Source of the DNA: a virus
Taxonomy: Duplodnaviria > Caudoviricetes
Length of the DNA: 29,685 nucleotides
Reading direction: 5' to 3' (one strand)
IMG/VR virus record: IMGVR_UViG_3300037461_000450
Span: 1 to 29,685 of that record
This document shows, one piece after another, positions 10,633-25,267 of this stretch. The notes under the pieces were generated by a model. The model made no database searches. It had not been told where the DNA came from and saw only the letters and a program-made list of their open reading frames with translations. A program made the position numbers and the translations under genes. Position 1 is the stretch's first letter. Each line of letters starts with the position of its first letter.

Positions 10633-12642
10633 ATGTTATTAAGCATCATCCACATTCCGCGCTCGGCCCCCTGGCTGCCGCCGTCGCTGCTGGCGAAGCC
10701 GGGGGAGATCCGCCACATCGTCCGCCTGTCCGAGCCGGAGCGCAAGGTGTTCCGCAAGCACCGGAAGATCCCCGTGTCGGTCTGGTGCGAAAAGTATCGG
10801 CATGTCACCATGTCCGTCCTGCCCGGCAGGTGGAAAAACAGCGTGACGCCCTACCTGGCCGGGATCATGGATGCCTCGTTCGCTTCGTCCGTGCGGACGA
10901 TCATCATCTGCAAGGCCCCACAGGTGGGCGGCACGGAGAGCGTCCTGAATTGCATCGGCTATGCCATCGACCGCGATCCCGGCCCGGTCCTGTTCATCTA
11001 TCCCGACGAGCTGACGGGCCGCGAAAACAATCAGGACCGCATCCAGCCCATGATCAAAACCAGCCCCCGGCTGCGGGGCTACATGACGGGCCTCGACGAC
11101 GACAGCGCGCTTTTGAAAATCAGCCTGCAGCACATGCCGATTTACATGGCCTGGGCCAGATCGGCGGCGCGGCTGGCCAATAAGCCGATCCGCTATGTCG
11201 TCTTTGACGAGACGGACAAATACCCCGAGACCGCCGGCAAAAGGGAGACGGACCCGATATCCCTGGGCGAGGCGCGCACGATCACCTACCGGCACAACTG
11301 CAAAAAGTGGAAGATCAGCACGCCCACGACGGAATCCGGGAACATCTGGAAGGCCCTCACAACCGAGGCGCAGGTCATATTCGACTTCTGGGCGCGGTGC
11401 CCGGCCTGCGGCGTCGAGCAGAAGATGGTCTTCGGCCGGATCAAGTGGGCGCACAAAACCGAGCCGGGTCTGGACGGGAAGTTACACTCCGAAGATCCGG
11501 AGACGATAGAGGCCGAGAAGCTGGCCTGGTATGAATGCCCGGATTGTCTGGCGCAATGGAACGATTATGACCGGGATCGGGCTGTCCGGTCCGGGCGCTG
11601 GCGCGACCGCAAGACCGAGACGGACATGGCTGAATATCTGCGGGTGCATAAGCCCACGAAGATCGGCTTCCATATCCCGAGCTGGCTGTCTCCGTTCGTG
11701 TCGCTGGCGACCGTCGCCGCGTCGTTTCTGCGCGGCCTGACGGACATGAACAAGTTCAAGGACTTCCACAACAAGCATTTGGCCGAGCCTTGGAAGCTGA
11801 CTGTGATCTCCAAAAACACGGAGCAGGTTCTGGCCGCCCGCTGCGATCTGCCGGCGCAGACGGTTCCGGAAGAGGCGGTTGCGCTGACATGCGGTATCGA
11901 CCGTCAGAAATACGGGTTCTGGTTTGTGGTCCGGGCCTGGTCCGCGAACCTCACGAGTTGGCTGGTTCACTACGGCTTTGTGGCGACCGAGGAGCAAATG
12001 GAGGCCGTCCTGTATGAGTCCGCCTATCCCGTGGGGGATACGGGCCGCGTGTTGAAGATCTGGCGGGCGGCGCCGGATACGGGCGGCGGCGAGAAATACG
12101 AAGACATGACCATGACCGAAGAGATGTATTTCTGGCTGCTGAAGAACATGGGCCGCGGCGGCGTTGCCATGTGGGGCGCAAAGGGGGCCAGCCGCGCCCT
12201 GCCCGGCATGCTGAATCTCGGACCGGCGATCATGTCCACGCCCGCCGGGAAGAAGCTGCCCGGCGCGCTGCGGATTCTGTCCGTCGATACAGCAAAGGGC
12301 AAGGATCAGTTTCATTATCGCCTGCAGATGGCAACCAATCCGGAGACCAGGGACCTGCCCGGCGCGGCGTTCCTGCATAAAGACACGGGCAACGATTATG
12401 TCGCGCAGATCCTGGCCGAGGAAAAGCAGGTCAACGACAAGGGTCATGAAGAGTGGGTCAACGTCCATCAGCGTCCGAACCATTTGCTGGACTGTGAGAT
12501 CCTCGCTGCGGCGTGCGTCGAAATGGAGTTTCCCGGCGGCGGTCTGCGGCTGCTGGCCGCCCACGCGAACCGGGACAAGGAAACAAAACCGCAAAAAACC
12601 GGCAAGCCGCCGGACAGGTCAAAAAAACCAGGGAGGTGGTAG
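10633..12642 (+). CDS. Terminase large subunit, lambda GpA family
   Basis: GRWKNSVTPYL, KAPQVGGTE, YVVFDETDKYP, ISTPT, CPAC/CPDC, LTCGIDRQ, NHLLDCE. Confidence 0.95.
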   Translation: MLLSIIHIPRSAPWLPPSLLAKPGEIRHIVRLSEPERKVFRKHRKIPVSVWCEKYRHVTMSVLPGRWKNSVTPYLAGIMDASFASSVRTIIICKAPQVGGTESVLNCIGYAIDRDPGPVLFIYPDELTGRENNQDRIQPMIKTSPRLRGYMTGLDDDSALLKISLQHMPIYMAWARSAARLANKPIRYVVFDETDKYPETAGKRETDPISLGEARTITYRHNCKKWKISTPTTESGNIWKALTTEAQVIFDFWARCPACGVEQKMVFGRIKWAHKTEPGLDGKLHSEDPETIEAEKLAWYECPDCLAQWNDYDRDRAVRSGRWRDRKTETDMAEYLRVHKPTKIGFHIPSWLSPFVSLATVAASFLRGLTDMNKFKDFHNKHLAEPWKLTVISKNTEQVLAARCDLPAQTVPEEAVALTCGIDRQKYGFWFVVRAWSANLTSWLVHYGFVATEEQMEAVLYESAYPVGDTGRVLKIWRAAPDTGGGEKYEDMTMTEEMYFWLLKNMGRGGVAMWGAKGASRALPGMLNLGPAIMSTPAGKKLPGALRILSVDTAKGKDQFHYRLQMATNPETRDLPGAAFLHKDTGNDYVAQILAEEKQVNDKGHEEWVNVHQRPNHLLDCEILAAACVEMEFPGGGLRLLAAHANRDKETKPQKTGKPPDRSKKPGRW

Positions 12643-12644
12643 GC

Positions 12645-12899
12645 ATGGGGGAAACAGCATTATCCGGCATGAAGGCGATAGTCGATTATTGCGGAGCGAT
12701 CGGTTTGCCGCGCACGGAGTCATCCATTATCCAGCTCAAGCAGCAATGCGGGTTCCCGATGAAGAAGCTCATGGGGATCTGGGAGAGCGACAAGGAGCTG
12801 ATCGTGGCATGGCGCAAGCAATATATCGCCGGAGAGTTATCGGAGCCGCCTCAACCTGCCAGAAAAAAGACCGTCTCTTCCCGCGGGAAAGCGGTATAA
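12645..12899 (+). CDS. Small Xis/MerR-like winged-helix protein, 84 aa
   Basis: GGAGGT RBS; LSGMKAIVDY..TESSII.L...GFPMKKLMGIWESDKELIVAWR matches excisionase-like architecture. Confidence 0.7.
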   Translation: MGETALSGMKAIVDYCGAIGLPRTESSIIQLKQQCGFPMKKLMGIWESDKELIVAWRKQYIAGELSEPPQPARKKTVSSRGKAV

Positions 12900-12906
12900 C
12901 CCTGAC

Positions 12907-13014
12907 GGCATGGCGGCGCAGTGGTCTGCGCAAGGCACAAATCCCGGGTGGAAACATACGAAACAAGTTCCTGGTGGAAACAGCAATGAGCGGGTTCGAT
13001 TCCTGCCCATGCCA
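12907..13014 (+). ncRNA. tRNA-like RNA with acceptor, D and T arms but a 58-nt non-canonical centre
   Basis: GGCATGG/CCATGCC; GCGC-AGTGGTCT-GCGC; GCGGG-TTCGATT-CCTGC; no canonical anticodon arm found, no encoded CCA. Confidence 0.7.
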
Positions 13015-13037
13015 CACATTAAATAACGCCCGAAAGG

Positions 13038-13060
13038 GGGCCTGAAAAGGCCCTTTTTTT
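13038..13060 (+). terminator. Rho-independent terminator
   Basis: GGGCCT-GAAA-AGGCCC followed by T7. Confidence 0.9.
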
Positions 13061-13146
13061 ATTCCTGTCAATCCCCTTTGATCCCCCATAAATACCTTGT
13101 CGATACCCTGTCTGACCCCTGTATGACCCCTGTTTGACCCCTGTTC
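13061..13146 (+). repeat. Tandem 10-11 bp direct repeats, about 8 units, core (A/C)CCCTGT
   Basis: ATACCTTGTCG, ATACCCTGTCT, GACCCCTGTAT, GACCCCTGTTT, GACCCCTGTTC at 13092-13146 plus three degenerate units upstream. Confidence 0.85.
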
Positions 13147-13185
13147 GTCCATTCGCCCAAAAAACCACCCCTTATACTGCCGCCG
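13147..13185 (+). promoter_or_regulatory. Putative activator-dependent late promoter
   Basis: TATACT -10 at 13173-13178, no good -35; follows a terminator and precedes all virion genes. Confidence 0.55.
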
Positions 13186-13274
13186 TATCGTTTGACGCGA
13201 TAGTTTTACGACCGGCATGGACGCACCGACCCCCCTGATCGGCTGCGTCCTGCCCGCAATCACCGGGAGGCTGT

Positions 13275-13502
13275 ATGGCATACACGCAAACCGATCTTGA
13301 CAATATCGAAGCCGCGATCCGGGCGATCATTGCCGGGACGCGCACCGTTGCCCTTTCCATGGGCGACAAATCCATCCAGTACACGGCCATCGACCTGCCA
13401 ACCCTGCGCGCCATGCGGGACGAAATCAAGGCGGAGGTCGGCGCGGCGGCCGGCACAATCAGCCCGCGATCATACGCCAGGCAGGGAGGGCGCGGAATAT
13501 GA
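13275..13502 (+). CDS. Head-tail joining protein, gpW-like
   Basis: 75 aa, LDNIEAAI..G..V..GDKSIQY..L; GGAGG RBS; directly before portal. Confidence 0.8.
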   Translation: MAYTQTDLDNIEAAIRAIIAGTRTVALSMGDKSIQYTAIDLPTLRAMRDEIKAEVGAAAGTISPRSYARQGGRGI

Positions 13503-25195: not shown

Positions 25196-25267
25196 ACAGG
25201 GGTAGCTCAGAGGCGAGAGCCCGCCGATGGTATGGCGGCGACGGCGGTTGAAATCCGCCCCCCTGTG
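25196..25267 (+). ncRNA. tRNA-like cloverleaf, 72 nt, non-canonical anticodon loop
   Basis: ACAGGGG/CCCCTGT; TA; GCTC-AGAGGCGA-GAGC; C; CGCCG-ATGGTA-TGGCG; GCGAC; GGCGG-TTGAAAT-CCGCC; no CCA. Confidence 0.8.

Follow-up and report, generated by a model that had tools for sequence, protein, structure and literature searches.

A family of tRNA-framed phage RNAs that carry two conserved motif copies predicted to pair with each other

An RNA gene with a tRNA frame lies between the terminase and the head genes of a lambda-like phage

The window, by which we mean the whole stretch of 29,685 nucleotides analysed here (IMG/VR virus record IMGVR_UViG_3300037461_000450), belongs to a lambda-like tailed phage with a CII-like gene, primases, a terminase (10633-12642), a head-tail adaptor, a portal, a protease-capsid gene and a tape measure gene, and for this phage we infer a Desulfobacterota-like host. 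The RNA gene sits between a small, weakly HTH-like ORF and a terminator, the latter being followed by 11-nt tandem repeats which precede the head genes (Table 1). The initial annotation had described this gene as a tRNA-shaped RNA whose anticodon arm is replaced by a repeat-bearing insert, and a direct check of the sequence confirmed the acceptor stem, the D arm, the T arm and the repeats at their places.

Table 1. Parts of the RNA gene and neighbouring features, in window coordinates
Feature	Positions	Strand	Evidence or remark
Whole tRNA-framed RNA gene, 108 nt	12907..13014	+	Family model R1, 88.6 bits (training set includes the window)
Acceptor stem, 5' strand GGCATGG	12907..12913	+	7 Watson-Crick pairs with 13007-13013; covaries in the family
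D arm, 6 bp with UGGU loop (alternatively 4 bp with 8-nt loop)	12916..12931	+	Folding
Repeat copy 1: ACAA-N-U-Y, helix strand 12944-12948, UGGAAAC	12937..12955	+	
Apical linker joining both copies	12956..12962	+	
Repeat copy 2: ACAA-N-U-Y, helix strand 12970-12974, UGGAAAC	12963..12981	+	
Predicted central 5-bp helix, 12944-12948 with 12970-12974	12944..12974	+	Compensatory changes; energy models alone weak
T arm, 5 bp, loop UUCGAUU	12990..13006	+	
Acceptor 3' strand CCATGCC (13007-13013) and discriminator A13014; CCA not encoded	13007..13014	+	
Module common with the run X4 contig	12877..13026	+	3 changes in 150 nt
Intrinsic terminator-like hairpin	13033..13060	+	Assigned to the phage slot, not to the RNA
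Context: 84-aa ORF 3' of the terminase, weakly HTH-like	12645..12899	+	Unlinked to the RNA in relatives
Context: tandem repeats, 11-nt period, upstream of the head genes	13106..13144	+	

The centre of the RNA, 58 nt long, contains GGTGGAAACA twice, at 12947 and 12973, just as had been annotated, but the real unit is longer than this 10-mer. The window repeat extends over 20 nt at 85% identity with a spacing of 26, its conserved core comprises 19 nt (12937-12955 and 12963-12981), and the last A of the 10-mer is not conserved in the family described below; neither is the ACAGCAA of the window. A likeness of copy 2, in the same sense, to the start of the upstream ORF (12646-12659) was treated as chance. 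As to the two flanking signals that had been pointed out, TATAAC is indeed found upstream, at 12895-12900, where it overlaps the stop codon of the upstream ORF, but it has no -35 box, a scan of 12500-13500 returned no promoter-like site, and a promoter is not a family feature (a -10-like box lies within 20 nt in 6/43 members). The strong terminator is likewise present as a hairpin behind the RNA, although the scan of 12500-13500 did not list it, but it does not belong to the family as such, a terminator being found within 80 nt in 7/43 members.

The window sequence has a folding z-score of -1.11, i.e. it folds no better than shuffles; ARAGORN did not call the element, and the Rfam tRNA-Sec model (RF01852) gives it 29.9 bits, under the 47-bit cut-off. 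A single sequence of this sort is by itself weak evidence, and evidence beyond chance comes from the family.

A second tRNA-like gene is located at 25196-25267, between two tail-region genes. It has an 8-nt loop and no base at position 26, scores 40.2 bits with RF00005 and is not a member of the twin-motif family by the family model; it had no match in cultured phages, and complements of its loop were not above chance. The suggestion that two mimics in one phage reflect a common strategy thus gains nothing, because the second gene falls outside the family. In the head-tail block of the same phage (20268-24157) we also observed genes for glycosyltransferases, a PglD-like acetyltransferase, a DegT-type aminotransferase and two methyltransferases, possibly a virion or surface glycosylation cassette.

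The twin motif defines a family found in phages of several host groups

Members of the family were collected by pattern scans, and each carries two copies of a 19-nt unit with the consensus ACAA-N-U-Y-(5 nt)-UGGAAAC. Two TGGAAAC blocks before a T-loop returned 50 viral loci, 13 of them tRNA-framed, and in 12 of these 13 an ACAA (once GCAA) stood eight bases 5' of each TGGAAAC, though ACAA was absent from the pattern. Two ACAA-N8-TGGAAAC units, with no tRNA feature in the pattern, gave 47 viral loci with 45 members, about half of which were near-identical mycobacterial prophage copies; the same tRNA-feature-free pattern gave 20 loci in GTDB with 7 members, the other 13 being simple tandem repeats or chance matches whose blocks do not pair. 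When the T-loop was added to the pattern, 27 of 28 metagenomic loci were members. The inner unit alone matched 54 viral loci (44 strict members, 7 variants and 3 unrelated), and a second copy lay upstream in 73/73 matches to the unit plus T arm, a sample in which two-copy patterns are over-represented. That ACAA and UGGAAAC do not vary is in part imposed by the search patterns, and relaxed matches vary at the U and at the last C.

The relaxed pattern, applied to all fetched loci with near-identical copies kept, counts 56 distinct members. After collapsing, 52 distinct elements remained, and 9 near-identical mycobacterial copies were dropped to give the 43 members analysed here, whose median pairwise identity is 0.64, with three pairs above 0.85. 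A covariance model of the family (R1) gave 49-94 bits to held-out members and no more than 27 bits to the remaining tRNA-like sequences of those loci.

The phages and prophages that carry the element belong to Desulfobacterota-like, alphaproteobacterial, actinobacterial and Chloroflexota hosts, those named being Agrobacterium, Sphingomonas, Aliihoeflea, Paracoccaceae, Rhodospirillaceae, Eggerthellaceae and Anaerolineae. It is also present in 14 cultured-phage or prophage records of Mycobacterium abscessus, where its place is unannotated, as it is in the cultured mycobacteriophages phiT45-1, P3MA and phiGD21-1. One copy per genome was found in 5/5 genomes searched. Six of the seven GTDB members adjoin phage genes or equal an IMG/VR record; L327, from an Anaerolineae genome, does neither and has no phage structural gene among the 10 ORFs scanned. 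The L327 and L361 members, 88% alike, adjoin kinase/phosphatase-like and FtsK genes and not phage structural ones, and may belong to an integrative element.

Neither the region nor the element had a real match among cultured phages by blastn, and no match was obtained for the L220 element against phages and E. coli genomes or for the L258 element against plasmids; matches of L415 in Bacillus phages turned out to be an ordinary tRNA pseudogene. A scan of viral contigs with a D-arm 16-mer returned 49 loci, none of them related, and samples of 151 and 151 GTDB genomes around two hosts contained no new member, only class II tRNAs at 32-36 bits. At L227 (1935-2065) we observed a tRNA-framed element with two UGGAAAC blocks after the helix ends and without ACAA, which scores 19.8 bits with R1 and is possibly a distant variant of the family.

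The frame is maintained by pairing and the two units by sequence

The acceptor stem forms 7/7 pairs in 29/43 members and 6/7 in 10/43, as opposed to 7/7 in 2.7% of cross-locus controls, for which 3' strands were tried on other members, the best of 20 offsets being taken for both real and control pairs. The T stem has 5/5 pairs in 41/43, the T-loop and elbow bases C56, R57 and A58 are present in 43/43, 43/43 and 42/43, respectively, and a D hairpin of at least 3 bp is found in 37/43. An anticodon arm (5 bp, 7-nt loop, U33) occurs in 0/43, so that the absence of a standard anticodon stem-loop, first seen in the window, holds across the family. A decoding tRNA is improbable in view of this, of a discriminator that is free (A18/C14/T8/G3) and of a CCA encoded in 3/43.

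The apical linker measures 6-8 nt in 38/43 members, and GA precedes the second ACAA in 37/43. The two copies pair through their variable 5-nt blocks, forming a predicted central helix with 5/5 pairs in 41/43 against 27% in cross-locus controls; this is accomplished by 17 different strand pairs, with a wobble as the middle pair in 25. Exactly three helices (acceptor, central and T) were returned by RNAalifold, unprompted, from an alignment of 36 of the 43 members; this omitted 2 rows with long 5' offsets and 5 in which fewer than 6 acceptor pairs form, a selection which favours the acceptor counts and not the central helix. In this alignment 93.4% of cells pair versus 63.3% in shuffles, and 0/500 shuffles reach the real value. 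Two-sided changes are seen at 16/17 pairs overall, while slid controls drop to 40-58% paired; in the central helix, 99.4% of cells are paired and 4/5 pairs show two-sided changes. Covariation among homologues, which the initial annotation had named as a check, is thus found, as each of the three helices shows compensatory changes.

Compared with the window, members have a mean identity of 0.90 in the repeats, a value inflated because the search patterns fix part of the repeat, 0.63 in the T stem and 0.37 in the acceptor. By sequence comparison, the frame is maintained by pairing and not by sequence, and the two 19-nt units by sequence. This agrees with the original notion of a tRNA scaffold presenting a cargo, as the frame covaries and the insert is conserved across hosts of several phyla. 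Since the blocks pair, an ACAAnUY strand would face a UGGAAAC strand at each end of the 5-bp helix, which gives two apparently equal sites, with pseudo-two-fold symmetry around the predicted central helix. In energy models the central helix has a median pair probability of 0.05 and exceeds 0.5 in 11/43 members, and a helix that weak would need non-canonical pairs, a ligand or another topology, such as two small kissing hairpins. The covariation fits intra- and intermolecular pairing alike, and it also fits non-canonical, ligand-held or kissing-hairpin versions.

The RNA gene is a mobile accessory module, found mostly in lytic operons

A contig from a separate study (run X4) is near-identical to 12877-13026 of the window and has unrelated sequence on both sides. 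Among terminase relatives (60 of 66 scanned) and 12 relatives of the HTH-like ORF, the corresponding slot is empty or filled with other genes and lacks the element, and none was found when the family model was scored on 36 terminase-relative and 11 HTH-relative loci. Because of the near-identical copy in unrelated flanks, and because relatives lack the RNA in this slot, it is a mobile accessory module. The terminator belongs to the slot and not to the RNA, since a contig from run X2 retains the hairpin behind different upstream sequence. Where the module common with run X4 has its left edge, within the last part of the upstream ORF, a perfect 12-bp palindrome (12878-12889) was noticed. In the relatives, a small HTH-like ORF follows the terminase and 10-11-nt tandem repeats precede the head-gene promoter region, with a variable slot between; this ORF and the repeats look like a late activator with its operators.

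Outside close relatives, the members have no protein family in common among their neighbours. In 39 loci, 150 of the 181 nearest same-strand ORFs were scanned, with PHROG only, and 22 of these loci had a named neighbour: 11 elements lie at Q, terminase (HNH-terminase), portal or head genes and 4 at replication genes, the rest being mixed; in L220 and L312 a Q-like gene immediately precedes the element. Most members lie between genes and have the same orientation as the lytic operon around them, and L363 is oriented against the lytic genes. A PADLOC scan of 17 neighbours gave weak domain matches and nothing stronger. A member is carried by prophiGD21-1, the lysogen of which expresses the repressor only, as reported in the accessible part of PMC8092301. 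Such a repressor-only lysogen fits lytic timing of the RNA. Small structured RNAs are often lost from such RNA libraries.

A two-site decoy for a dimeric host protein is the tentatively favoured interpretation

These RNAs constitute an uncatalogued phage family in which a tRNA frame carries two conserved motif copies, predicted to pair. The interpretation which we favour, although with somewhat less than even confidence, is that they work in trans and that their two sites are a decoy for a host RNA-binding protein that is a dimer and probably serves as a defence or toxin factor. An intact acceptor-T stack together with the D/T elbow is what RNase P, the 3' trimming nucleases and the CCA-adding enzyme read, so it is plausible that the RNA would be excised from lytic transcripts and be stable. 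In this scheme the RNA would be transcribed within lytic operons; RNase P and 3' trimming enzymes, reading the tRNA elbow, would release it, and a host enzyme would add CCA. It would have no part in decoding and would accumulate as a stable molecule. The weakest step is that the two equal sites would be bound by the halves of a homodimeric host protein, which would also stabilise the weak central helix, but two equal sites at a fixed spacing do suit a homodimeric ligand. As the motif is unchanged across host phyla and has no phage partner, a host molecule would be its target, and the protein in question would have to occur in several host phyla, whether as part of the core machinery or as a mobile nuclease of a defence or toxin system. 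Accessory genes in variable slots are typical of counter-defence, and the position of this gene would point in the same direction. A bolder formulation would be that of a cross-phylum class of phage counter-defence RNA, in which a natural aptamer of two-fold symmetry, built on a tRNA scaffold and needing no protein of its own, either neutralises an immune effector of the host that is a dimer or sequesters the nucleotide signal of that effector, and this we hold to be possible but doubtful.

It needs to be mentioned that the same conservation pattern as with a decoy would result if the ligand were a small molecule or if the RNA influenced transcription in cis. Phages are known to employ protein sponges. 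An RNA counterpart, whose twin loops would be aptamer pockets for two molecules of a nucleotide signal or cofactor, is in our opinion unlikely. On one hand, two equal, conserved, A-rich internal loops flanking a short covarying helix are riboswitch-like, a universal metabolite would fit hosts of several phyla, and the NAD+-I riboswitch, as presented in the accessible part of PMC7297122, has two similar domains with a ACANCCCC bulge that binds ADP. On the other hand, that bulge is without an opposite strand and needs C4 stack pairing with a GYG loop, both absent here, the riboswitch models of Rfam give no match up to E values of 1-2, and there is neither an expression platform nor a regulated gene.

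Less likely again is a cis-acting element of the lytic transcript, be it a put/nut-like antitermination signal or one for processing or stabilisation, in which the twin motif would bind RNA polymerase or a Nus-type factor. The polymerase is universal, the members lie mainly between co-oriented lytic genes, twice right behind a Q-like gene, and the window copy is situated just 5' of a terminator. However, terminators accompany few other members, positions range from replication to head genes, close relatives do without the RNA, and L363 is on the opposite strand; moreover, a frame cut by RNase P would, on established knowledge, detach from the transcript.

We consider it improbable that the gene encodes a pre-tRNA with an intron, in which the symmetric loop-helix-loop would be cut on both strands like an archaeal bulge-helix-bulge, with ligation producing a working tRNA. 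The two-fold symmetric motif does lie at the anticodon position, and 'introns' in phage tRNAs have been reported for Lak phages (PMC6784885, accessible part), but a canonical anticodon arm, found in no member as it stands, appears in 2/43 after removal of one repeat period in any register. Furthermore, the discriminator and acceptor identity vary freely, and no endonuclease or ligase gene travels along.

Just as improbable is an antisense RNA of the P1 C4 or P4 CI kind, pairing with short targets in phage mRNA, which the initial annotation had offered as one role of the cargo. A tRNA-like frame with conserved blocks that are single-stranded and, at 7-8 nt, as long as the C4 targets a and b would be suited to it, and one 16-nt complement inside a gene of L306 is the sole result in its favour. 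Yet complements are not enriched: 7-mer complements within 250 nt number 61 versus 59.8 +/- 8.0 expected from the cross-locus control, with 0 in the window, where the search excludes the immunity region, which lies outside the window and could hold a target; GTTTCCA was observed 27 times versus 22 expected in 0.52 Mb of flanks. Five whole viral records contain no exact third copy or complement, and the 9 one-mismatch complement or copy places in them, against 2 in the control, may reflect codon composition. Antisense pairs drift from phage to phage, whereas here unrelated phages retain identical blocks; no C4-type match was obtained with Rfam, and with the family model P1 C4 stays at tRNA background. 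No conserved complement was found in rRNA, and an rRNA complement or mimic was rejected, as the 16S stretch ACAAGCGGUGGAG (935-947) resembles the unit in part only. A CRISPR-repeat mimic (Racr), a CsrA site, a K-turn and a T-box bulge do not seem to fit.

Still more improbable is a structural RNA that multimerises through copy 1-copy 2 pairing between molecules and serves head assembly or packaging in the manner of phi29 pRNA. Covariation would be as compatible with pairing between molecules as within one, the intramolecular helix is weak, and many members lie beside terminase, portal or head genes, but the neighbouring terminases come from different families (PHROG 2, 9 and 15), close relatives lack the RNA, and 4 members are found at replication genes. 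Finally, a functionless, decayed tRNA with a recent tandem duplication is hardly credible: although the single sequence folds no better than shuffles and stays below Rfam cut-offs, the insert is far better conserved than the frame, all three helices show compensatory changes, the distinct members number 43-56, and these family data refute decay, as the initial annotation had anticipated.

The conserved surface makes the function of the RNA tractable

Ever since T4 rnaC/rnaD and T5 RNA1-3 were recorded, phages have been known to encode stable tRNA-like RNAs to which no job has been assigned. As the frame of the RNAs described here is free to vary, their functional surface would be pinned to two 19-nt units and a 5-bp helix, which makes the question of the job tractable, and the maintenance of the motif in phages that infect several phyla points to a target which many hosts have in common. 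Should the RNA prove to be a decoy or a sponge, phages would have a new way of countering host defence by RNA only, and the tRNA-scaffold aptamers made by engineering would have a natural counterpart. Its presence in cultured mycobacteriophages provides immediately accessible material.

Comparison with known RNAs

With Rfam 15, neither the window nor 19 member loci matched any family outside the tRNA clan, so the database search proposed at the outset yielded no known family. The full-text literature searched contained no description of a self-pairing, twin-motif, tRNA-framed RNA, and no such family appears in the accessible part of PMC9934374. It was not found in the structured-RNA surveys PMC10690425 and PMC8040213 with their searchable supplements, the remaining files of which, likely alignments, may list it as an unnamed candidate.

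Features of a canonical tRNA (RF00005) that are retained comprise the 7-bp acceptor, the D arm and the 5-bp T arm with its T-loop. The resemblance to tRNA-Sec is confined to a 6-bp D stem with a UGGU loop, and both tRNA-Sec and allo-tRNAs were rejected, as they need an 8/5, 8/4 or 9/3 branch, a long variable arm and an intact anticodon arm. Lak tRNAs with 'introns' (PMC6784885) and allo-tRNAs (PMC5389517) are, in the accessible parts of these sources, likewise phage tRNA genes that are longer or differently shaped, but they keep the anticodon arm, and allo-tRNAs have 8/4 or 9/3 stems where the twin-motif family has 7/5 and no such arm.

The NAD+-I RNA (nadA, RF03013) shares with the family two similar conserved units and an ACA-containing unpaired strand beside a helix; it differs in being a cis-regulatory leader upstream of nadA with another loop topology and without a tRNA frame, and it gave no Rfam match. 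Two similar conserved units are also known from the guanidine-II riboswitch, which is cis-regulatory and has no tRNA frame. The bacterial Y RNA YrlA, as far as the accessible part of PMC4201824 goes, combines a tRNA-like domain with a protein-binding module and occurs in phages, but its genes lie beside Ro60/TROVE and its arms are ordered otherwise; no Ro60/TROVE neighbour was found in the window or, with PHROG only, among the 150 flanking ORFs scanned at 39 loci.

We also observed a separate family of tRNA-framed phage RNAs, 110-125 nt long and arranged in arrays, with a hairpin and then ACAGCAA in the anticodon arm (L117 955-1612, L134 1490-1842, L141 1043-1612, L138 1467-1584 and L152 1026-1608); the array in L117 precedes a DUF2828/vWA gene. 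In Asn- and Ser-type copies, skipping the insert between positions 28 and 29 restores all 5 bp of an anticodon stem, and such copies may therefore represent genuine insertions into tRNAs that work. The window element was rejected as a member of this group, which scores 27 bits or less with R1. Other phage tRNA-framed RNAs with enlarged centres of different sequence were seen in L125, L129, L139, L140, L162, L187 and L195.

C4 of P1/P7 (Rfam C4) and CI of P4 are, like the present RNAs, small phage RNAs with a tRNA-like frame, cut from a longer transcript, their maturation being by RNase P. P1 C4 is flanked on either side, at a distance of up to about 100 nt, by targets of 7-8 nt, and the twin-motif family has none; unlike C4, which R1 scores at tRNA background, the family has true T and D arms and a double repeat that pairs with itself. 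T4 rnaC/rnaD and T5 RNA1, RNA2 and RNA3 lie in tRNA clusters of large lytic phages and are without the UGGAAAC twin motif, and with the family model they stay in the tRNA background (best 20.8 bits versus 49-94 for members). According to their GenBank annotation, they are nevertheless alike in being phage-encoded, 100-145 nt long, with tRNA-like ends or a T arm, an enlarged centre and no known job. As these examples show, tRNA-framed phage RNAs of unknown job are a known kind.
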